Positions 30,185-43,821 of a DNA stretch of 64,000 nt are shown one piece after another. The notes below the pieces were generated by a model. The model ran no database searches. It saw only the letters and a program-made list of their open reading frames with translations, and was not told where the DNA came from. The translations under genes were made by a program, and so were the position numbers. Within the stretch, counting starts at the first letter, position 1, and the number at the start of each line of letters is the position of its first letter. The DNA is from a bacterium (GTDB lineage Bacteria > SAR324 > JACQKK01), in NCBI GenBank assembly GCA_965240465.1, contig OZ251219.1, positions 1,535,139 through 1,599,138 of the forward strand, read 5' to 3'.

Positions 30185-32815
30185 TCAAGGGCTGCACTGA
30201 ATAGGACACTGAATATGGCTTGAAGGCTGATAACAAATGAGATCGCCTTCTACTTGAACATCGCTTTCTGCTTTATATGACTTCAGGCTGGGATATTTGC
30301 CCGCGGCGAAATCCCAATTAAAGCCATTCCAGCCATCGTAGCTACCATTATCGCAGAGCTGATTGGAGGGATCGGTAATGTTCCAAGTGCCACCAATATT
30401 GGCAGCCTCGCAGGCAGCTTGAGTATCGGGAGCTAGGTTGGTCAAGGTCTGTAGTTGCTCGGCAGTTTTGCCCCGTGCCTTAGTTGAATCCAGGGTGAGC
30501 TCCGTCCCACCGCTTAGAGAAATATCAGTGTCATAATAGCTATTGGTGATCTCACCTACGTTATTAAATATTGTTCCCACCAATCTACCTACTTTGTCTG
30601 CACCTTCCCCTCCATCAACCGCAACTAGAGCATAGCTGTCCCTAATATAGATATTTAAGAAACCTTGCTGAAAGAAGCCTTCCACCCCAAAAACCCCTAC
30701 CAAACCACCTACTGTGTCGTTACCCGTGCCACCATTAGCAGGACCAGTAGCATAACTGTTTGCAATGATGGCATTAGATACAAAACCATAAGTACTTCCT
30801 AGATTAATCCCCACCAAACCACCTACTGAATCATTATCTTCATCACCATTGACTGTACCAGTCGCATAGCTGTTTTGGATCAGCCTTCCATTATTCCCCA
30901 CCAAGCCGCCTACATTATCACTACCCGTGCCACCATTGACTGTACCAGCCGCATAGCTGTTTCTAATATAGCCGTTATTATACCCTACCAACCCCCCCAC
31001 TTTGTCATGATTAACACCGCCATAAACATCTCCAGTGGCATAACTGCCCGCAACATTACCTCCTACAATCTCCCCTACTAACCCCCCCACTCTGTCATTA
31101 CCACCTGAACCACCATAAACATCCCCAGTCGCATAACTACCTTCAACATTACTTTTGTAAAGACTCCCTACCAACCCCCCCACTTCGTTATCACTACCTG
31201 AACTGCTAGTTACATTTCCAGTGGCATGACTGTTTTTAATCAGGCTATTTTCTATAGCTAACCCTGCCAACCCGCCAACCCTGTTGGAATTACTACTGAT
31301 AATAACACTGCCCACGGCATAACTGCTTTCAATCTCACCTTTGTTTACCGTTCCCACCAAGCCACCTACAGAGTTACGCCTACCCTCATCGCCAGCAACA
31401 TCACCCGTGGCTAAGCTGTTTCTTATTATACCTTCGCTATATCCCACCAAGCCACCTACATGGTTAAACTTACCCGCACCGCCAACAACATCGCCCATGG
31501 CATAACTGTTCACGACAGTCCCATTATTGCTTCCCGCTAATCCTCCTAACTCATTACCTTCACCCGCACCACCAGTAACATCGCCAGTGGCATAGCTACT
31601 CTGGATGATACCCTCACTACGCCCTACCAACCCGCCAGCTCGCACATAATCACCATCGGCAACCGCAATCTCTAACTCAGCCGAAACATTATCTATTACC
31701 CCACCACTCCTTAACAAAGCTACCACCGCACCTACAAAATTAGGAGACGCATCCGCTCCCATTGCCCAACTGCTATAAACAAAACCTGATTCAAACGATA
31801 AGTCGCGAACCGTACCACTTAACACCGCAAAAAACCCCGTGTGTTCGGTGTCGTTATCAAGGTTGAGATTATTGATGGTATAATTACCTCCATCAAAGAC
31901 AGCCTCAAAGGGAGCATTCCCACTGCCTATTGGACTCCAATTAGACAGAGAAAGTAGCTCAATGTCGTTCACCAGTTCATAGCCATTGCACCCCGTACTC
32001 GGACAACCAATGCTAGAACCTGTATCGGCATCACTGATCTTGTAGCTATCGCCTGCCAAGTTGTAGCGAATGTTATTCAACTGAGCCAAATTAGAAATAT
32101 CAATTAAACCATCGCCATCTCTATCGGGATCTTGACCGCCCGCATCGGGGTCTTCCAAAGAATCTAGGCAACCATCCGAGTCGGCATCGTTGATGGCAGT
32201 ATCCCAGTTTTTTGCTCCTACTGGGCAATTATCGGAAGTGTCTGCTATTCCATCATTGTCATCATCGGAGTCCGCGGAATCCAATTCACCGTCATTATCA
32301 GCATCGGTACCTGCACCCTGATCTTCATCCGTGCTGGCATCCTGACAACCATCTGAATCGGCATCTTCTGCGGTGTTGCTCTGCCATAATCTCGTTCCTC
32401 TTTGGCAGCCATCTGCTGTATCTAAGATGAGGTCATTGTCATCATCAAGGTCGGTAGTATCTGGCTGGCCATCATTATCGTAATCGCTGCCTAGGCCTTG
32501 GTCCTTATCCTCTTTATGAGAATCAAAACAGCCGTCTAAGTCTTGGTCTGTGCTGGGACCACTGACGAACCCTACTGGACTGTAACGGCATAAATCTTGG
32601 CTGTTTAGGATTCCATCACCATCGGAATCCCCGCTACTTTCCACCCCCACGCCCCCGACCCCGCCACCTCCACCTACTCCTCCAGTGCTGCTACCCCCCC
32701 CCTCCCCTCCCCCCCAGCAACCACTAACGAACAAGGCTAGAACTAAGAACAAGAAATGGATGCTTCCAGTATTCTTAGAGTTCATTATTGTGCTCCTCAT
32801 TATTGTGCTTATCAT
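30185..32815 (-). CDS. Surface lipoprotein with TSP3-like Ca-binding repeats and GLUG repeats
   Basis: VSGC lipobox-like motif; DxDxDG...D.CP repeats; many VGGLVG...SYATG repeats. Confidence 0.85.
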   Translation of the reverse strand: MISTIMRSTIMNSKNTGSIHFLFLVLALFVSGCWGGGEGGGSSTGGVGGGGGVGGVGVESSGDSDGDGILNSQDLCRYSPVGFVSGPSTDQDLDGCFDSHKEDKDQGLGSDYDNDGQPDTTDLDDDNDLILDTADGCQRGTRLWQSNTAEDADSDGCQDASTDEDQGAGTDADNDGELDSADSDDDNDGIADTSDNCPVGAKNWDTAINDADSDGCLDSLEDPDAGGQDPDRDGDGLIDISNLAQLNNIRYNLAGDSYKISDADTGSSIGCPSTGCNGYELVNDIELLSLSNWSPIGSGNAPFEAVFDGGNYTINNLNLDNDTEHTGFFAVLSGTVRDLSFESGFVYSSWAMGADASPNFVGAVVALLRSGGVIDNVSAELEIAVADGDYVRAGGLVGRSEGIIQSSYATGDVTGGAGEGNELGGLAGSNNGTVVNSYAMGDVVGGAGKFNHVGGLVGYSEGIIRNSLATGDVAGDEGRRNSVGGLVGTVNKGEIESSYAVGSVIISSNSNRVGGLAGLAIENSLIKNSHATGNVTSSSGSDNEVGGLVGSLYKSNVEGSYATGDVYGGSGGNDRVGGLVGEIVGGNVAGSYATGDVYGGVNHDKVGGLVGYNNGYIRNSYAAGTVNGGTGSDNVGGLVGNNGRLIQNSYATGTVNGDEDNDSVGGLVGINLGSTYGFVSNAIIANSYATGPANGGTGNDTVGGLVGVFGVEGFFQQGFLNIYIRDSYALVAVDGGEGADKVGRLVGTIFNNVGEITNSYYDTDISLSGGTELTLDSTKARGKTAEQLQTLTNLAPDTQAACEAANIGGTWNITDPSNQLCDNGSYDGWNGFNWDFAAGKYPSLKSYKAESDVQVEGDLICYQPSSHIQCPIQCSP

Positions 32816-32861
32816 TGTTGGCTCCTCATTGTTTGGCTGTTAATGATAATAAATGTTGGGA

Positions 32862-34781
32862 TCAAGAACCAGTACATTGATTGTGGGTTTGAGAAGGCTG
32901 TTTGCAGATGAGATCGCCTTCTACTTGAACATCGCTTTCTTCCTTATATGACTTTAGGCTGGGATACTCATCAATACCTGAGAAGTCCCAATTAAAGCCA
33001 TTCCAGCCATTACTTGCACCAAATTGAGTTTCGGTGTCGGCAGCGGTGAGAGCCTTGAGGTCGGCATCATTATGTCCGATGGCTTCGGTATCGGTGGTGG
33101 TTACTTTTACATCGCCTATTTTAACTGTAAGCCTGCTGCCTTCATAATAGTAGTTGCCTGCGATGTTGGTAGGGAAGGATCTTTCTCCGACCACTTTTCC
33201 TACCTGATCAGCATAGCCTGTACCCCCATCTACACTTCCAGTGGCATAGCTGTGTTGGAGGATACCTGCTAGGTTATAGCCTACTAAGCCCCCGACTCTA
33301 TCGGAATTCCCCGCACCACCAGTTATATCACCCGTGCTATAGTTGTCCTGCAATGTCCCATTATTCCAGCCCGATATGCCCCCTACGTGATCATTAGAGC
33401 CAGCACCGCCATCAGCACCACCAGTGGCGTAGCTATTTCTAAGCATCCCTAGGTTAATTCCCACCAAGCCGCCTACTTGATCGGAATTGCCATCACTACC
33501 TTGAATTAAGCCCTTAGTGTAGCTGTTTTGGATTGTTCCATTATTAACTCCTGCTACGCCGCCTACGGAGTCATAATCATCGTTGCTACCTACAACATCA
33601 CCGATCACGGAGCTTGTCTGGATTAGGTTATCATTCATTCCTACCAAGCCGCCTACATTGTCCTTATCTCTTCCTCCGCCACTAACATTGCCTTCTGTAT
33701 GGCTATTCTCAATGGTACCACCATTGGTACCAACCAACCCGCCTATGACATCAAAACCAGCTGGACTGGTAACATCGCCTGTTGCATAGCCGTTATTGAT
33801 GCTCCCCTCGTTTAGTCCTACCAAACCACCTACGCTATCGTGATCACCAATATCCGCAGTGACTGACAACTCAGAGACAATGTTATCTAGCGTCCCGCCT
33901 ACTTGTAACAAACCCGCCACTGCCCCTACCGTGGAAACAGACAATAACTCTCCCTCGGCATACACACCGATAACCGATCCCGACTTAAACACTAGATCAC
34001 TTACCGTGCCACTCAAAACAGCAAAGAATCCCGTGTGTTGAGTGTCATTATGAACGGCAAGGTTTTTTATGGTGTTATTGTTTCCATCAAATTCGCTCCC
34101 GAAAGGTTGATCATCAGCACTTTCATCACCGCCGCATTTGTTATCTTCTCCACAGTTCCCCAAGGGTATCCAGTTGGCGATTCCAGATGTTAGGGGATAT
34201 TTTAGGACAATATCGTTCACCAGTTCATAGCCATGGCACCCCGTAAGAGGACACCCAGTGTTGCTACCTGTATCGGCATCACTGATCTTGTAGCTATCGC
34301 CTGCCAAGTTATAGCGAATGTTATTCAACTGGACCATATTTGAAATATCAATTAAACCATTGCTATCGCGGTCGGGATCTTCACCTCCTGCATCGGGATC
34401 TTCTGTGGAGTCTTGGCAACCGTCCAAATCCTTATCCTTGGTGACATCACTACTGTCCCAATTCTTGTCTCCAATAGGGCATTCGTCTAAAGGATTGCCA
34501 TTTTCGTCAAAATTGTTTATTCCATCGTTGTCAGCATCTTCGCCTGTGCCTTCGTCATGGTCTTCGTCTTTATCGCGACAGCCATCTTCGTCCTTGTCGG
34601 TGGTAGCACCACTGATCCAGTCATCGGCCCCCATGTAGCATACGTCTTTGTCATCCGAGACGCCGTCATTGTCATAGTCTGGAACAGGAACGGGAACTAT
34701 TTTGTTGGCGATACTAACGTCCCCCTCGCAGTTGACTAAGAGAAGACTAAAAACGCTTGAAAAAAATAATTGCTTTTTCAT
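32862..34781 (-). CDS. Paralogous surface lipoprotein with TSP3-like and GLUG repeats
   Basis: LLVNC lipobox-like motif; same architecture as the neighbouring gene. Confidence 0.85.
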   Translation of the reverse strand: MKKQLFFSSVFSLLLVNCEGDVSIANKIVPVPVPDYDNDGVSDDKDVCYMGADDWISGATTDKDEDGCRDKDEDHDEGTGEDADNDGINNFDENGNPLDECPIGDKNWDSSDVTKDKDLDGCQDSTEDPDAGGEDPDRDSNGLIDISNMVQLNNIRYNLAGDSYKISDADTGSNTGCPLTGCHGYELVNDIVLKYPLTSGIANWIPLGNCGEDNKCGGDESADDQPFGSEFDGNNNTIKNLAVHNDTQHTGFFAVLSGTVSDLVFKSGSVIGVYAEGELLSVSTVGAVAGLLQVGGTLDNIVSELSVTADIGDHDSVGGLVGLNEGSINNGYATGDVTSPAGFDVIGGLVGTNGGTIENSHTEGNVSGGGRDKDNVGGLVGMNDNLIQTSSVIGDVVGSNDDYDSVGGVAGVNNGTIQNSYTKGLIQGSDGNSDQVGGLVGINLGMLRNSYATGGADGGAGSNDHVGGISGWNNGTLQDNYSTGDITGGAGNSDRVGGLVGYNLAGILQHSYATGSVDGGTGYADQVGKVVGERSFPTNIAGNYYYEGSRLTVKIGDVKVTTTDTEAIGHNDADLKALTAADTETQFGASNGWNGFNWDFSGIDEYPSLKSYKEESDVQVEGDLICKQPSQTHNQCTGS

Positions 34782-35046: not shown

Positions 35047-35115
35047 AGAATGCCCTGGCAAAAATAAGAATGCCCTGGCAAAAATAAGAATGCCCTAGCA
35101 GAAATAAGAATGCCC
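35047..35115. repeat. 20-nt tandem repeat AGAATGCCCTGGCAAAAATA; the 4th (partial) copy supplies the hutH ATG
   Basis: Directly visible. Confidence 0.9.
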
Positions 35116-36654
35116 GAGTATATCACCATAATCCCTGGTAAAGCCACCCTGCCAATGCTGGAACACATATGGCACAACAATCTCGCAGTAAAGCTGGAGC
35201 AATCTTGTCGCCCTGATGTGGAACGAGGAAATGCCATCATCACCAAAATTGCCCAAGGCCAAAAGCCAATCTATGGAATAAATACGGGCTTTGGTAAATT
35301 AGCCAATGTGCGTATTCCTCCCGCACAAACGGTGGCTCTACAACGAAACATTATCCTGTCCCATTGCTGCGGAGTCGGCAAACCCCTCTCCCGACAAATA
35401 GTACGTCTCACCATGGTGCTGAAAATACTGTCGCTAGAACGAGGAGCCTCTGGCATCAGTTGGCCCGTACTAGAACTGATGGCCGATTTCCTAAAGCACG
35501 ACATTCTGCCCGTTATTCCCTCGCAAGGTTCGGTAGGTGCCAGCGGCGACCTTGCACCCCTCGCACACCTGACCGCGGCTTTAATCGGGGTGGGGCAGGT
35601 ACAATATCAAGGGAAAGTGATGGATACCTCCTCCGCGCTGCAAAAAGCAAACCTCAAGCCAGTGATACTCGGCCCCAAGGAAGGACTAAGCATGATCAAC
35701 GGCACTCAGGTCTCTACCGCCCTAGCCCTAGCAGGCTTGTTTGAGGCATGGCATAACATCCGCTGTGCCATAACCTTCAGTGCCATGACCACCGATGCCA
35801 TCATGGGATCCACCGCTCCACTCCACCCTGAAATCCACCGCCTCCGCGGACATAAGGGACAAATAGACACCGCCGCAATCCTAATGGAATTACTAAAAAA
35901 CTCGGAAATTAGACAAAGCCACCAAAAAAATGATCCCCGCGTCCAAGACCCCTACTGCATCCGTTGCCAACCCCAAGTACTCGGTGCCTGCATTGACCTC
36001 CTGCGACAAGTAGCCAATACACTACTTATAGAAGCCAATGGCGTCACCGATAACCCTCTCATCGTCGCCAAAGAAGTTGCCAAAGAGGATGTCATCTCAG
36101 GCGGAAACTTCCACGCCGAACCTGTCGCCTTCGCTGCCGACCAAATCGCCCTCGCCATCGCCGAAATAGGCTCGCTAGCACAAAGGCAAGTCGCCATGCT
36201 CATAGACCCCGCCCTCAACTACGGACTGCCTCCCTTCCTCTCCTCCAACCCAGGACTACACTCAGGAATGATGATCGCTGAAATCGTCACCGCTGCTCTC
36301 ATGAGCGAAAATAAACAAAAAGCCAACCCCTGCTCCACCGACTCTATCCCAACCTCGGCTAACCAAGAAGATCACGTCTCCATGGCTTGCCACGCCGCCT
36401 TCCGACTCATAGACATGAACCAAAACCTCCGACAACTACTCAGCATTCAACTCATGATAACCTCACAAGCCATTGAATACCGACTCCCACTCAAAACATC
36501 TCCTCACCTCCAAAAAATCCTCCGCCTAGTACGAAAAACCATCCCCACCCTTAAAGAAGATCGCTTCCTCGCACAGGACATCGACAACTCAACAAAACTC
36601 ACCCAACAACCCTCATTTAATAACTTGCTCGCTCAAATTACACTGAAAGCATAG
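35110..36654 (+). CDS. hutH: Histidine ammonia-lyase
   Basis: YGINTGFG, GSVGASGDLAPL (MIO), VQDPY..RC.PQV, GGNFH and NQEDHVSM motifs. Confidence 0.96.
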   Translation: MPEYITIIPGKATLPMLEHIWHNNLAVKLEQSCRPDVERGNAIITKIAQGQKPIYGINTGFGKLANVRIPPAQTVALQRNIILSHCCGVGKPLSRQIVRLTMVLKILSLERGASGISWPVLELMADFLKHDILPVIPSQGSVGASGDLAPLAHLTAALIGVGQVQYQGKVMDTSSALQKANLKPVILGPKEGLSMINGTQVSTALALAGLFEAWHNIRCAITFSAMTTDAIMGSTAPLHPEIHRLRGHKGQIDTAAILMELLKNSEIRQSHQKNDPRVQDPYCIRCQPQVLGACIDLLRQVANTLLIEANGVTDNPLIVAKEVAKEDVISGGNFHAEPVAFAADQIALAIAEIGSLAQRQVAMLIDPALNYGLPPFLSSNPGLHSGMMIAEIVTAALMSENKQKANPCSTDSIPTSANQEDHVSMACHAAFRLIDMNQNLRQLLSIQLMITSQAIEYRLPLKTSPHLQKILRLVRKTIPTLKEDRFLAQDIDNSTKLTQQPSFNNLLAQITLKA

Positions 36655-36798
36655 CAAGGCATTAGCGAAGCACTTGGCAAAGCACTTAGCGAGGCACTTG
36701 GCAAAGCACTAAGCAAGGCACTTAGCAAGGCACTTGGCGAAGCACTTAGCAAGGCATTAGCGAGGCACTTAGCGAAGCACTTAGCAAGGCACTTGGCG
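36651..36798. repeat. ~12-nt degenerate tandem repeat GCACTTAGCAAG / GCACTTGGCAAA starting at the hutH stop
   Basis: Directly visible. Confidence 0.88.
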
Positions 36799-36909
36799 GA
36801 CAGCGAAGCTTCCCCATCCCCTCCCCCTCGGTCTTTTCTCCCATATCCTTATCTTAGGGGGCTGGGGGGTTGGAGAGCTTGGGGGGCGGGCATGTAAAAA
36901 TCAGAGGGC

Positions 36910-37162
36910 GGAATGAAAGGGAATGGTGGGGAGTGCTATTGCTCGCATGCTCCATCGGGCGGACAAAGCAAATGGGGGGCAACCCATGCATGTATGTGAA
37001 CCAGCACATATCTGAAGAGATTACGGTGCAATAGCGACCTCCTCTCTTCTTCGTCACTTGCTTCACGTCTTCACGCCTTTACGCCGGAAAACATGATAAG
37101 CCTGACTTATCGGATGTGACGAACCTCAGATCAGGCTCTTCCCACTAATTCCCTTTCATTCC
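36910..37162 (+). ncRNA. Candidate structured non-coding RNA of unknown family
   Basis: 15-bp perfect terminal stem, several internal helices, a GCAA tetraloop and two pseudoknot-like complementarities; G-U pairs favour the + strand. Confidence 0.5.
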
Positions 37163-37255
37163 TTAACATCTAATCTGTAATAAACAATGCTCACCACAGC
37201 TAAGCTGTGCTTCGCACGACTGACAGTATTCATCACAGAAATGTCTGATATTCTT

Positions 37256-37284
37256 AATCTAAGGCATGGTAGCTAGTTTGTCAA
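37256..37284 (-). promoter_or_regulatory. Putative sigma70 promoter TTGACA-N17-TAGATT pointing toward the structured element
   Basis: Consensus -35 box and 17-nt spacer. Confidence 0.45.
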
Positions 37285-37366
37285 GTTTTTTTTTGCTAGA
37301 GGGTAATTCATAGTATATTCTTATTGTGTAAAATCAAATAATTATAGATTATTATTGATTTTTTTG

Positions 37367-37395
37367 TTGACATATCCTTATAATAATGCTAGTTT
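37367..37395 (+). promoter_or_regulatory. Putative sigma70 promoter TTGACA-N17-(TGn)TAGTTT
   Basis: Consensus -35 and extended -10; preceded by the first copy of a 29-nt direct repeat. Confidence 0.45.
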
Positions 37396-37399
37396 AAGT

Positions 37400-37436
37400 T
37401 CAGTAAGAAACCTAAAATTTTTAGGTTTCTTACTGA
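37400..37436. promoter_or_regulatory. Perfect 18-bp inverted repeat with 1-nt centre (operator- or cruciform-like)
   Basis: TCAGTAAGAAACCTAAAA-T-TTTTAGGTTTCTTACTGA. Confidence 0.6.
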
Positions 37437-37509
37437 GACCAGAGAGATATGGTGTTTAACTATCTTATTGTGTAAAATCAAATAGTTATAGAAGTAATAA
37501 AATTCTGTA

Positions 37510-37538
37510 TTGACAGACATTCATAAAAAGTATATTAT
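37510..37538 (+). promoter_or_regulatory. Putative sigma70 promoter TTGACA-N17-TATTAT
   Basis: Near consensus; preceded by the second copy of the 29-nt direct repeat. Confidence 0.55.
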
Positions 37539-37622
37539 ATGAACATAATCCACGGTAGATTTTTAATTACTAGTGTGGTAGGTATATTTAATTTTTTTGT
37601 TACAATTAATGAGATGAAAATA

Positions 37623-37829
37623 ATGAACAAAAAATATTTCACAAGAGTAATACAATTTTTCAACGGTGTAATACAATTTTTCAACGGTGGTGACGGACAA
37701 AAACCTATTAGGGAAGATTTCAATAAACAAAGACCAGTAAATCCAAATACAATGGGTTGTAATAAACCAAGACCATCTACTAAGTCACCATCTATTGATC
37801 CATCACCGACTAAGCTAGTAAAAAAATAG
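37623..37829 (+). CDS. Small Pro/Lys-rich hypothetical peptide (start uncertain) with internal 21-nt duplication
   Basis: ORF lies between the promoter and the 2-TM gene; VIQFFNG x2. Confidence 0.4.
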   Translation: MNKKYFTRVIQFFNGVIQFFNGGDGQKPIREDFNKQRPVNPNTMGCNKPRPSTKSPSIDPSPTKLVKK

Positions 37830-37835
37830 AAAGTT

Positions 37836-38386
37836 ATGAACGAAAAAGAAAAGCTAGATAAACAAAAGGCACGTCTAACAGAATGCTTGTCCAGAACAGA
37901 ATTTAATCTTTATCGCTTTGAAGATGTGATGGATCGTGCTTTGTATTGTAGTAAATTTTTTCAAACCCTGCCTTATTTAGTAATTCTTGTTGCTTTTTGC
38001 CTTGTTTATATACCTAATATAAGCGGCAACATTGTTGGTCTTGTCTCTGTTATTGGAGTTGTTATTAGTGTAGCAGGGATCATAGCGTCCAATGTTTGGA
38101 GAATACACGAAAGACCCCTTCTTTATCAGAGTACAATTAATTTGTTGCTGTATCTAAGGAATCAATGGGAGATGTTACTTGCAAAAGACCAACTTATAGA
38201 TGATAAAGTCATTGAAGTTTATATGCTATGGGTACGTCTCTTGATAACAAAGTAGAGCCACCAAAAAATGAAAGACGGGAAATTATAGCCGATAATAAAG
38301 TATCTATGCAAAGAGGGGAACCCTGTATAGAAGTTCCTAGTCGCTTTGGATTCTTAAAAAGAAGAAAAAAATCATCCCGAAAATGA
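37836..38386 (+). pseudogene. Frameshifted two-TM membrane protein (SLATT-like topology)
   Basis: ORF 37836-38255 has two TMs; a shifted frame from ~38219 stays open (LYAMGTSLDNKVEPP...SSRK) to TGA 38384-38386. Confidence 0.5.
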
Positions 38387-38495
38387 GCAATGCTAATTTC
38401 AGCATTCTCCACAAAAGCTATTGACAATCGCGGTGGAATATCGGCAGGATGGTGCTTGGTGTTGATGGAGGACGGGGTTTTGCCCAAATGATAGA

Positions 38496-38568
38496 AATGT
38501 CCGCTGGGAATGTCCGACAGAAATGTCCGCTAGGAATGTCGCTAGGAATGTCCGCTAGGAATGTCGCT
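38496..38568. repeat. ~13-nt tandem repeat AATGTCCGCTAGG overlapping the atpF' start
   Basis: Directly visible. Confidence 0.85.
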
Positions 38569-40257: not shown

Positions 40258-40597
40258 CTGGGACATAGTAATAGTAACTGAGACATCGTAACTGGGACAT
40301 CGTAACTGGGACATCGTAACTGAGACATCGTAACTGGGACATCGTAACTGAGACATCGTAACTGAGACATCGTAACTGGGACATCGTAACTGAGACATCG
40401 TAACTGGGACATAGTAATAGTAACTGAGACATCGTAACTGGGACATCGTAACTGACATATCGTAACTGGGACATCGTAACTGGGACATAGTAACTGACAT
40501 ATCGTAACTGGGACATAGTAACTGACATATCGTAACTGACATATCGTAACTGACATATCGTAACTGACCCATCGTAACTGACCCATCGTAACTGACC
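40246..40597. repeat. 14-nt tandem repeat (CATCGTAACTGGGA family), ~25 copies, between atpH and atpA
   Basis: Directly visible; begins inside the last atpH codons. Confidence 0.96.
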
Positions 40598-42158: not shown

Positions 42159-43091
42159 ATGAAAAACATAGAGCTAAAAAGAATTGATGCAGACGAAGAA
42201 ACTACTGCAAAACTACTTCCATTTTGTAGCTTAAAGCTGGGAGATATTTGGATTGACCCTGTGTTTGGTCATAAAATAGCTTGTATTGATTCAACTGATT
42301 CTGCACAAGTAAAAAAAATGATGAACGGTGAAAAAGCAAAACTAGCTATCCACGACCCCCCTTATAACTTTATTGCTTTTGACATTCAACGCTTGGATAA
42401 ATTTATCCAGTGGTGTAAGCACTGGATAAAAAACACAGCTGAATCCCTTGATGATGCAGGCTCTGCCTTTTACATTTGGCTAGGAGCTGACCAAAAAAAT
42501 GACTTCCAACCCCTACCAGACTTTATGATAATGATGCGTAATTTTATGGAGTTTAAGTCTCGTTCATTTATAACCATGCGTAATCAACGAGGCTATGGGA
42601 CTCAAAAAAATTGGATGTCTGTCAGGCAGGAGTGTCTTTATTACATAAAGGGAGAACCATTTTTCAAAGTTCAATATACTGATATACCTAAAATTCTCAA
42701 GGGGTATTATAAAAAAATAGATGGAGATCTTGTAGATAACTTTTCTAGAAGCAAATCAAAAAATATAAGACCAAGCAACGTTTGGGTAGATATTCAACAA
42801 GTTTTTTACCGTATGATAGAAAATGTTAATGGGTGTTATGCTCAAAAGCCATTGAAAAGCATTGAAAGGATTATGATATCAAGTTCGCAAGAAAATGACA
42901 TTACAATTGATTTTTTTGGGCACTCTGGAACTACACTTATTGCTGCAGAAATGTTGAAAAGGAAATGTTTTATTGCTGATAATAACCCAATTTATTGTGA
43001 AATTATGATTAAGCGACTTAATAATTTTCGTAAATATGGACAGACAGGTTGGCAAAATAGTAGTCCGTTTGAAAATGAGCTACAGGAATAG
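42159..43091 (+). CDS. N4-cytosine/N6-adenine DNA methyltransferase (beta-type motif order)
   Basis: DPPY before QKP and DFFGHSGTT; AT-rich. Confidence 0.88.
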   Translation: MKNIELKRIDADEETTAKLLPFCSLKLGDIWIDPVFGHKIACIDSTDSAQVKKMMNGEKAKLAIHDPPYNFIAFDIQRLDKFIQWCKHWIKNTAESLDDAGSAFYIWLGADQKNDFQPLPDFMIMMRNFMEFKSRSFITMRNQRGYGTQKNWMSVRQECLYYIKGEPFFKVQYTDIPKILKGYYKKIDGDLVDNFSRSKSKNIRPSNVWVDIQQVFYRMIENVNGCYAQKPLKSIERIMISSSQENDITIDFFGHSGTTLIAAEMLKRKCFIADNNPIYCEIMIKRLNNFRKYGQTGWQNSSPFENELQE

Positions 43092-43821
43092 AGTAACTTG
43101 TATTGTGGAACAATTAAAAGAAACATTAGAAAAATTGATATTGGAACTAAAGAATTCTAATGATATTTTAACTAAGCTAAATAAACTGGTATCTGTGTAT
43201 CCATTTAATGAATATGAATACATGATTTCCGTGCTTTTGGGATTCAATAAATTATCTTTAGATGAGTATTATATCCTTAGAGATGAATACATACACAGAA
43301 ACTTATTCTTGTATATCTTTGAAATTAATGCACCTCGTGGATTTGGAGAAAAATGGGCACAAGGACACTTAAAAGAGCTTGTTCCCGAACTGAAAAAACC
43401 ATCTAAACTATCTAATCCAAACTATTCTGGGCAATATGATTTTTGGCTAGATGATAAAATAGCTGTTGAAATAAAGGCATCTAGAACTACCGATTCTAGT
43501 ATTGACGCTCCGTTATATGAAAAAGCACTAGCTTCTAATTCTAAAAAACCCTTCCTAATGAACTTTCAGCAAATAAAACCTGAATGCTGTGATGTTTTTA
43601 TTTGAATCGCTGTTTGGAGGGATAAAATCTACTATTGGGTACTTTCCTCTAATGAGGTAAAAAATAATTCGCACTACTCCAAAGGACAACATAAAGGAAA
43701 TATAGGTGAAGGCCAGCTACATATGCGTCACGATAATATAAACGACTTTGATAAATATCGTTCTAAAAATAGAAACTTGCTTGACGCTATCTGTTCTGCA
43801 TATAAAAGGCAAAATGCCTAA
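43075..43821 (+). pseudogene. Putative restriction endonuclease interrupted by in-frame TGA (43603-43605)
   Basis: PD-(D/E)xK-like YDFW...VEIKAS; the frame continues IAVWRDKIYYW...GEGQLH...KRQNA to TAA 43819-43821. Confidence 0.7.

Follow-up and report, generated by a model that had tools for sequence, protein, structure and literature searches.

A candidate family of pseudoknotted structured RNA genes with conserved promoters in a SAR324 genome

Introduction

The known classes of ornate bacterial RNA adjoin phage genes, tRNAs or dedicated protein partners. Large RNAs of the ornate kind include GOLLD, ROOL and OLE (PMC12286853). Here we analyze an intergenic element at positions 36910–37162 of a 64,000-nt stretch of DNA, referred to as the window (GenBank assembly GCA_965240465.1, contig OZ251219.1, positions 1,535,139 to 1,599,138), from a bacterium of the SAR324 lineage. 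The genome (G000) is a single contig of 1,599,138 bases, in an assembly rated 83.6% complete. An initial annotation, made from the sequence alone, had described the element as an orphan, multi-helix and possibly double-pseudoknotted non-coding element. It compares most closely with the large ornate RNAs, a loosely defined group (OLE, GOLLD, ROOL, HEARO) of poorly known or unassigned function, with which it shares the size class, many helices, long-range pairings, pseudoknots, a closing stem and the non-coding character. It has no covariance-model match to any of these even at E≤1, it carries a family-specific promoter word, and it occurs as seven diverged paralogues, in long and short forms, in one small genome (the only one among those searched) and beside surface-lipoprotein arrays.

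Other described systems share single traits with this locus. Qrr1-5 of Vibrio and the Yfr2 family of cyanobacteria are multi-copy small RNAs of ~60–110 nt that use short antisense seed pairing. As in these, the genome studied here has several paralogous RNA genes, each with its own conserved promoter, but the family is 3–7 times longer, is pseudoknotted and has no complementarity to mRNA 5' regions beyond chance. Bacterial miniature inverted-repeat transposable elements (MITEs) and palindromic repeats, such as Correia/NEMIS, RPE and Nezha, are likewise multi-copy and intergenic, and inverted-repeat ends are found in the 253-nt part of our element. In contrast to a MITE, the conserved unit exceeds the inverted repeat, no target duplication was seen, the pseudoknots covary and there is a strand-specific excess of G-U pairs. 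Retron msr-msd RNAs and the non-coding RNAs (ncRNAs) of defence-associated reverse transcriptases (DRT) have an inverted repeat that closes a structured RNA, as here, but no reverse transcriptase was found nearby or in the assembly.

Results and Discussion

Seven copies of the element in one genome

Our best reading, based on sequence comparison, is that the element belongs to an undescribed, lineage-restricted family of structured RNA genes. The inverted repeats and 8-nt units reported for it in the initial annotation are present. Five pairs were recovered by a repeat finder: the 15-nt perfect inverted arms (36910–36924 and 37148–37162), GCTATTGC (36935–42) complementary to GCAATAGC (37028–35), TTCGTCAC (37050–57) complementary to GTGACGAA (37116–23), GAAGAGA (37014–20) with TCTCTTC (37043–49), and AGCCTGA (37099–105) with TCAGGCT (37131–37). 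The others (CATGC/GCATG, GGG-GCAA-CCC, TATGTG/CACATA, GATAAG/CTTATC and ATCTGA/TCAGAT) were read directly by eye, as were the three 8-nt units at 37061–84. A 273-nt stretch around the element is predicted to fold at −100.6 kcal/mol (z −5.05) on the plus strand and at −106.7 kcal/mol (z −5.59) on the minus strand, and on either strand none of 200 dinucleotide shuffles was as good.

The element is not an orphan, as had been assumed, since it has six paralogues in the genome, giving seven copies in total. By BLAST against its own genome, a 50-nt core (window 37014–37061) recurred in six other places at 85–88% identity, and window 37117–37165 was a second block common to the copies. This was further supported by R1, a covariance model of the shared 5' domain built from an alignment (A1), which detected exactly seven loci in the genome with 104.9–195.3 bits, the next-best match having 16.4 bits. 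Five of the copies, located by BLAST, are long, with 560–598 nt between the outer ends of the closing stem: c348 (G000:347936–348649), c716 (G000:716056–716792), c877 (G000:876860–877587), c530 (G000:530651–531361) and c1210 (G000:1210646–1211344). The remaining two, c1328 (near G000:1328480–1328720) and the window copy (core 36910–37162), are short.

The long copies contain two modules (A and B), in each of which a loop pairs with a strand of that module, and a middle domain of ~160 nt that is strongly conserved; a covariance model of this domain, R2, recovered the five long copies only. The short copies have one module, and their loop region resembles modules A and B alike. Deletion may have produced the short form, or duplication the long one. 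Between them the two short copies retain all four pairings, an argument for maintenance of the short form and against its decay. Three of the long copies are recent duplicates that include the flanking genes (c348–c877, 92% identical; c716–c877, 89%). As c348, c716 and c877 are mutually ~89–95% identical, the family comprises five sequence types. The diverged long pairs (c348–c530, 74.2% over 736 nt; c348–c1210, 67.7%; c530–c1210, 69.1%) align within the unit only, and their flanks are unalignable. Tandem repeats occur within some copies: c716 and c877 contain varying numbers of a 13-nt unit, and the c1328 leader has a 16-nt array.

A conserved promoter at the border of the unit

In the older comparisons the similarity starts at the −35 word ACTTGACAAAC and stops at CTTTCATTC, which is the 3' strand of the closing stem. 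In every one of the seven copies ACTTGACAAAC is followed, after a spacer of 17 nt, by a TAnnnT hexamer, and seven of the eight genomic occurrences of this 11-mer are at family loci. The promoter scan found the window promoter, TTGACA-17-TAGATT, at 37284–37256 on the minus strand with 10/12 matches; inside the repeat-bounded segment there were only weak matches (9/12). With the −35 box at the right border and on the minus strand, the unit, composed of promoter, ~90-nt leader and stem-closed core, runs from right to left in the window. Of the extent first given (36910–37162) the pairs were thus correct, but the conserved unit continues rightward to the promoter at 37256–37286.

The plus-strand orientation implied by the initial annotation was not supported. 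The other strand is favoured by the conserved promoter, by the folding energies and by the numbers of G-U and A-C cells; the RNA is probably read from the minus strand of the window. In a consensus where G-U pairs were disallowed, and which is therefore neutral between the strands, the promoter-sense orientation held 352 Watson-Crick, 22 G-U and 10 A-C cells (computed on three of the five long copies, one per long sequence type). The promoter-sense orientation also folds more stably in all seven copies, by 3.1 to 48.2 kcal/mol, and the window copy has −105.7 against −100.6 kcal/mol for the opposite strand in this comparison.

Compensatory changes in helices and pseudoknots

The predicted closing stem (P1), a hairpin (P2) and two loop-to-strand pseudoknots (PK1 and PK2) are conserved across the family through compensatory changes. 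For the five long copies, RNAalifold gave a consensus of 191 pairs with 95.3% of the cells paired. Changes on both sides were seen in 21 of the 191 pairs, as compared to 6.4 ± 2.1 in 500 shuffles, none of which reached 21, and the double-changed pairs dropped to 3–7 when the partners were slid by 1–3 columns. As the structure was predicted from the same alignment, and three of the rows are close relatives, these figures are to be taken as support and not as proof. More telling is the comparison between the short and the long forms.

P1 is complementary in every copy while its inner half differs, for example GGGAAUUAGUGGG/CCCACCAUUCCC in the window and GGGGAUUGGUGGG/CCUCACCAAGCCUC in c348. The arms of P2 differ at nearly every position and stay complementary across the sequence types (AGCCUGA/UCAGGCU in the window, AAAGUGCC/GGCACUUU in c1328 and GUGACCGCC/GGUGG-A-UCAU in the long copies), and in c1210 an A-U pair stands where the others have G-U. 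In PK1, the P2-loop strand CGUCAY pairs with RUGACG ~60 nt downstream; this pairing is kept to 100% in all seven copies, and one of its pairs reads U-A in four of the long copies, C-G in both short copies and a gap in c1210. PK2 joins the apical loop of the module hairpin to a strand preceded by a conserved AAGC. Here the strands are complementary in every copy: GCUAUUGC/GCAAUAGC in the window, GCCACUGC/GCAGUAGC in c1328, GUCAUUGC/GCGAUGAC in module B of the long copies and GUCGUUGC/GCAAUGAC in c530. The corresponding strands of module A in the long copies are GAUUGC/GCAGUC (c348, c877), GAUUGC/GCAAUC (c716) and GACUGC/GCAGUC (c530, c1210), a series of U-G, U-A and C-G at one pair.

Four of the helices in the initial annotation and both of its long-range pairings are kept in the paralogues with compensatory changes, while GATAAG/CTTATC and ATCTGA/TCAGAT are both lost in c1328, the closest paralogue. 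The double pseudoknot it had considered was essentially right, with GCAATAGC/GCTATTGC as the second long-range pairing; AGCCTGA/TCAGGCT forms a plain hairpin, inside which one strand of TTCGTCAC/GTGACGAA lies.

Organization of the window copy

Read on the minus strand, the putative RNA gene of the window begins with the promoter at 37256–37286, where the extended −35 element ACTTGACAAAC (37286–37276) and the 17-nt spacer are followed by the −10 hexamer TAGATT (37261–37256). From the −10 position, transcription would start at ~37249. The presumed 5' leader (37163–37249) ends at the closing stem; it shares the blocks AUCAGACAUUUCU and ACUGUCAGU with the long copies in the alignments, and the repeat finder placed a hairpin at 37188–37216. 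P1, kept in all seven copies, is formed by a 5' strand at 37141–37162 (GGAAUGAAAGGGAAU with a GUGGG extension) and a 3' strand at 36910–36931 (CCCAC..AUUCCCUUUCAUUCC), where the homology with the paralogues stops.

Within the core, P2 (37099–37137) pairs AGCCUGA (37137–37131) with UCAGGCU (37105–37099), and its loop holds an invariant UGAGGUUC and the 5' strand of PK1 (UUCGUCAC, 37116–37123); the 3' strand of PK1 is GUGACGAA at 37050–37057. A variable hairpin at 37058–37098 contains the copy-specific three 8-nt units (37061–37084), and the other copies have unrelated hairpins at this place. The significance earlier attached to the CTTCACGY repeat was not borne out, as the repeat sits in this variable hairpin and none of the six other copies has it. 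The conserved module hairpin (37014–37049, GAAGAGA...UCUCUUC) is part of the 50-nt core and includes GAGGAGGU and the near-invariant YUGCACCGNAAUCUCUU. Its apical loop is the 5' strand of PK2 (GCUAUUGC, 37028–37035), for which the predicted partner, GCAAUAGC at 36935–36942, has the conserved AUGGAGCA..AGC before it and the P1 3' strand just after. The stretch 36943–37013 is occupied by copy-specific hairpins (UAUGUG/CACAUA, CAUGGG/CCCAU and GCUUUGUC/GAUGGAGC, from fold and sequence), of which GCUUUGUC/GAUGGAGC could form three G-U pairs on the minus strand only.

Beyond P1, the region 36813–36909 has a run of five U's at 36900–36896 and then a C-rich tract on the RNA strand, and the 3' end of the RNA may lie within this region. 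On the plus strand, 36857–36892 has four runs of 3–6 G, and C-rich and G-rich tracts face each other within 36813–36892. C-rich tracts likewise follow the long copies c348, c716 and c877.

Known families, coding potential and other genomes

No known RNA family matched. The 4227 models of Rfam 15, which covered OLE, GOLLD, ROOL, HEARO, group I/II introns, RNase P, tmRNA, 6S and retron msr, gave no match at gathering score in the 64-kb window. Nor was there any match at E≤1 in six loci with six of the seven copies (18,761 bases, both strands), a scan that left out c877, which is 92% identical to c348. The description as an undescribed multi-helix, pseudoknotted non-coding element therefore stands. 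A search for tRNA and tmRNA found none, and no description of such an RNA was found in the open-access literature by word search. As in type A RNase P RNA, P1 joins the ends and a pseudoknot strand lies just before the 3' half of the closing helices, and the block GAGGAGGUC has what we take to be a superficial resemblance to the RNase P P4 region. RNase P RNA was rejected as a candidate, since there are seven copies without a model match and the canonical RNase P RNA gene is located elsewhere (G000:225900–226344, 256.8 bits).

The earlier statement that the element has no credible open reading frame (ORF) was also upheld: the ORFs of 70 aa (minus strand) and 54 aa (plus strand) over the element are not conserved among the paralogues, no ORF is common to the copies in the alignments, and the indels are not in threes. 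Among genes of mobile systems, we found in the genome no match to reverse transcriptase (PF00078, RVT_1), although the same search was positive in 3 of 14 control genomes, none to the TnpB zinc ribbon (PF07282) and none to serine recombinases (Resolvase). Two tyrosine recombinase genes are present, which would be the number expected from XerC/XerD alone. An omega-RNA of TnpB or IscB was rejected, given that PF07282 had no match and no large ORF abuts the copies suitably; IscB-specific domains were not searched. As far as the 83.6% completeness allows, the lack of RVT_1 and TnpB removes both the retron/DRT and the omega-RNA ideas. No RNA family, mobile-element type or reverse transcriptase/nuclease-guide system that we tested fits, and we rate the family as a candidate new class, known from one genome only.

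Outside this genome, BLAST matched none of 40 related genomes. With R1, none of 18 other genomes of the same taxonomic family had a match below E 0.2, and the best match in five further genomes of the class had E 0.025. One of 63 other genomes of the order gave an R1 hit (E 0.018, 20.3 bits over 60 nt), which was judged to be noise. R2 had no match in the 18 family genomes, and its best match in the five further class genomes had E 0.096. Together the model scans spanned 69 other genomes of the class, with 19 of the 88 class genomes outside them. Genome, metagenome and viral collections were searched by exact pattern only. The core pattern AGGAGGTN{3,6}YTGCACCGNAATCTC was found at four loci in genome contigs, four in metagenome and two in viral contigs. 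These ten loci have no similarity beyond the pattern and at most 14.6 bits against R1 (members 105–195), they match R1 over model positions 124–152 only (46–155 in two of them, L020 and L026), and they were treated as chance occurrences. A middle-domain pattern had no match in the viral contigs, and phage and plasmid collections (blastn, distant mode) gave no match. The genus has one other genome, G001, which is distant (its AtpA is 81% identical) and lacks the RNA family by both R1 and R2. It also lacks hutH, its region upstream of the atp genes is unrelated to the window, and no GLUG-motif match was found in it.

Genomic neighbourhood

Four of the seven copies directly adjoin a gene for a GLUG-motif (Pfam PF07581) lipoprotein. 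Typically the RNA gene lies ~65–125 nt past the stop codon of a GLUG gene on the same strand, and in three copies there is a terminator hairpin between the two. In the window, two GLUG genes (30185–34781) lie on the RNA strand 2.1 kb downstream of the RNA, from which they are separated by a convergent histidine ammonia-lyase gene (hutH). At least 51 GLUG-like ORFs occur in about seven arrays; they occupy 135 kb, which is 8.5% of the genome, and in most of them the lipoprotein signal ends in ...LASCGG. A GLUG ORF borders only 31 of the 381 intergenic gaps that exceed 150 nt. Because the flanks were co-duplicated in three of the adjacent copies, the independent associations number only about two or three, so that the link to GLUG genes is suggestive but not established. 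Antisense complementarity between the RNAs and the region −150 to +60 of 1197 ORFs reached 14 nt at best (E 0.25), with no enrichment for GLUG genes.

Several observations concern the arrays themselves. The largest GLUG array starts at 310531, with a tyrosine recombinase gene (G000:309093–309599) ~0.9 kb upstream. Many lipoprotein genes are followed by a terminator-like hairpin of 29 nt, GGGAGTGAG...CTCACTCCC, which has a T-rich tail and recurs at 93–95% identity (examples L012–L019; G000 345918–345946 and 902608–902636). GLUG genes are also present in G065, a further 1.6-Mb genome of the class, where giant GLUG proteins are encoded in a tightly packed array without any repeated intergenic element.

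The copy c1210 sits between two convergent defence-like genes (G000:C1:1208196–1213260). One encodes a UvrD-like helicase, for which the best PADLOC matches are a DRT-associated helicase and GajB, and the other an OLD/AriA/GajA-like AAA_15 ATPase.

Directly upstream of the RNA promoter in the window is an AT-rich island (37296–38410; GC 25–36% versus 45% for the genome). It has two ORFs without a Pfam or PADLOC family (96 aa, 37539–37829; 139 aa, 37836–38255), a 30-nt direct repeat that occurs twice (37319 and 37463), strong promoter-like sites and a perfect 37-nt palindrome at ~37400–37436. Minor contigs in both sequencing runs join 37295 to 38411 and omit 1115 nt, and other contigs diverge into unrelated sequence at 37304 and 38316, which indicates that the island varies within the sampled population. 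The 139-aa ORF is the gene with two transmembrane segments that the initial annotation had tied to the element. This tie was not supported, since the island is missing from some contigs of the same sample and the other copies have no such neighbour.

The window also has several short tandem arrays. A 12-nt array, TAGCAAGGCACT, with 12 copies (36652–36794) begins at the hutH stop codon, and its copy number varies, as one contig per run omits 106 nt of it. A 14-nt array, GTAACTGAGACATC, with 22.6 copies (40274–40595) lies between the ATP synthase delta and alpha genes, and further short arrays are found at 35047–35115 and 38492–38568. An N6/N4 DNA methylase gene (42159–43091) and a 189-aa ORF directly follow atpA (together 42159–43700). 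The gene from ~43872 is, presumably and from its first residues alone, that of the ATP synthase gamma subunit, and as it begins only there the atp operon appears to be interrupted.

Alternative explanations

The family could be a non-autonomous selfish DNA repeat, MITE-like or similar to short interspersed nuclear elements, in which the hairpins would be by-products of the terminal inverted repeats. Seven copies in one genome only, perfect 15-nt inverted repeats at the ends of the reported element and repeat-rich surroundings, with tandem arrays beside or inside several copies, are what such an element would be expected to leave. However, the unit extends ~125 nt past the inverted repeat to the −35 box, and its ends are not complementary. 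No direct repeat of the kind left by target-site duplication was seen at the borders of the five sequence types, the flanks being read by eye with no statistical test. The sequence GAATGAAAGGG occurs six times in the genome, always inside family members, and there is thus no autonomous element with the same ends. Neither TnpB, a serine recombinase nor a reverse transcriptase was found; other transposase families were not searched. Furthermore, copies that are only 68–74% identical keep helices and pseudoknots by compensatory change, and a bias for G-U over A-C is not produced by pairing of DNA. We consider a selfish repeat to be a rather improbable explanation.

Alternatively, the element could be a long cis-acting leader (5' untranslated region or attenuator) of a downstream GLUG gene, maybe acting via a leader peptide. 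A GLUG gene does lie downstream on the same strand in c348, where the listed ORF overlaps the RNA 3' end, and in c877, where the ORF starts 205 nt away. The conserved block also has the appearance of a translation start, with a Shine-Dalgarno (SD) sequence GAGGAGG 4–6 nt from a start-like codon followed by UUG/CUG-CAC-CGN-AAU-CUC-UUY, in which the variable sites are synonymous. Against this, the downstream gene is convergent in four of the seven copies (window, c716, c530 and c1210), and at c1328 a 317-aa ORF without any family starts at the RNA 3' border. The reading frames diverge after six codons and stop at 11–31 codons, three copies would have to use a CUG start, and each of the synonymous sites is matched by a compensating change in its pairing partner. 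We give a cis-acting leader a low probability.

A third possibility is an invertible DNA switch (inverton), with the inverted repeats as recombination sites that switch surface-protein genes. The dimensions would suit such a switch, with inverted repeats of 15–22 bp that flank a 220–560-bp segment near surface-lipoprotein arrays, and the genome has two tyrosine recombinase genes, one of them just upstream of the largest GLUG array. Yet the conserved 10/12 promoter lies outside the repeat-bounded segment, and covarying internal helices and pseudoknots are needless for a switch. Contigs from two runs of one sample span 36833–37295 of the window copy in a single orientation and without any difference, no strand-changing joint was found among the contigs, which may miss rare variants, and there is no serine invertase. 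An inverton is accordingly very improbable.

The retron- or DRT-type ncRNA proposed in the initial annotation, with the CTTCACGY units as template, can practically be dismissed: a closing inverted repeat round a structured RNA and a short tandem motif are there, but P1, found in 7/7 copies, is not retron-specific, the 8-nt units are absent from the six other copies, no suitable ORF is adjacent to any copy, and RVT_1 has no match anywhere in the 1.6-Mb assembly, though its completeness of 83.6% leaves room for a missing piece.

The interpretation as a family of RNA genes also has points that weigh against it. All covariation comes from paralogues in one genome, with five sequence types only. 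The restriction to one genome is also expected of a selfish repeat, and neither the same-genus G001 nor 68 further genomes of the class have the family. The association with GLUG genes rests on few independent events, owing to the three adjacent copies that were co-duplicated with their flanks. In the P1 extension of the window copy, two A-C mismatches on the minus strand correspond to potential G-U pairs on the plus strand. The most conserved block is readable as a Shine-Dalgarno sequence and a short ORF, M-H-R-N-L-F, and its three variable sites are the start codon or third codon positions. No run registered as RNA was found for window 36600–37400 among four runs, of which two, from one study, cover the stretch. 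Finally, transcription itself, its start at ~37249 and its 3' end are things that we infer.

Proposed function and significance

Taken together, we find it on balance probable that the copies form a real family of genes for a structured RNA that has its own promoter and acts through its fold. The element would then be the folded core of a structured non-coding RNA gene on the minus strand of the window. A sigma-70-type promoter (37286–37256) would start the transcript near 37249, and the transcript would reach at least 36910, giving ~340 nt for the window copy, a short, one-module form of the seven-member family, and ~650–700 nt for the long form. P1 would close the core, the P2 loop would pair ~60 nt downstream (PK1), and the apical loop of the module hairpin would pair with the strand just before the 3' half of P1 (PK2). 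These pairings could bring the invariant blocks UGAGGUUC, GAGGAGGU, UGCACCGNAAUCUCUU and AUGGAGCA..AGC close together. The RNA would act in trans by means of its tertiary structure, whether as scaffold, as binding partner or as catalyst, and not by antisense pairing, and it is possibly tied to the arrays of GLUG-motif surface-lipoprotein genes beside which most copies lie.

The invariant GAGGAGGU is perfectly complementary to the 3' end of 16S rRNA, which could reflect ribosome binding or a translated mini-ORF, M-H-R-N-L-F... Since each variable site of the block also has a compensating partner, neither reading could be told apart from a purely structural role.

More tentatively, and as a possibility that we hold to be less probable than the existence of the RNA genes as such, the family may be a new class of large, modular, double-pseudoknotted RNA, amplified to seven expressed genes of one or two modules in a bacterium whose 1.6-Mb genome is reduced. 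It might work together with the very large GLUG repertoire, either by controlling which of the lipoproteins are made or by contributing to their variation as a ribozyme or the core of a ribonucleoprotein.

It is rare for a new class of large structured RNA to be found in bacteria, and the study of the known classes has revealed unexpected biochemistry. Seven RNA genes of 340–700 nt with signature promoters would be a notable cost for a small genome. The one- and two-module forms offer natural deletion or duplication variants, and the compensatory changes suffice to define a testable pseudoknotted core. Even if the family were selfish it would be unusual, as a repeat with its own promoter and selection on RNA structure. 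Both the RNA family and the lipoprotein repertoire are present here and both are missing in G001; if a functional tie between them is true, this would be a new RNA-based control of surface variation.

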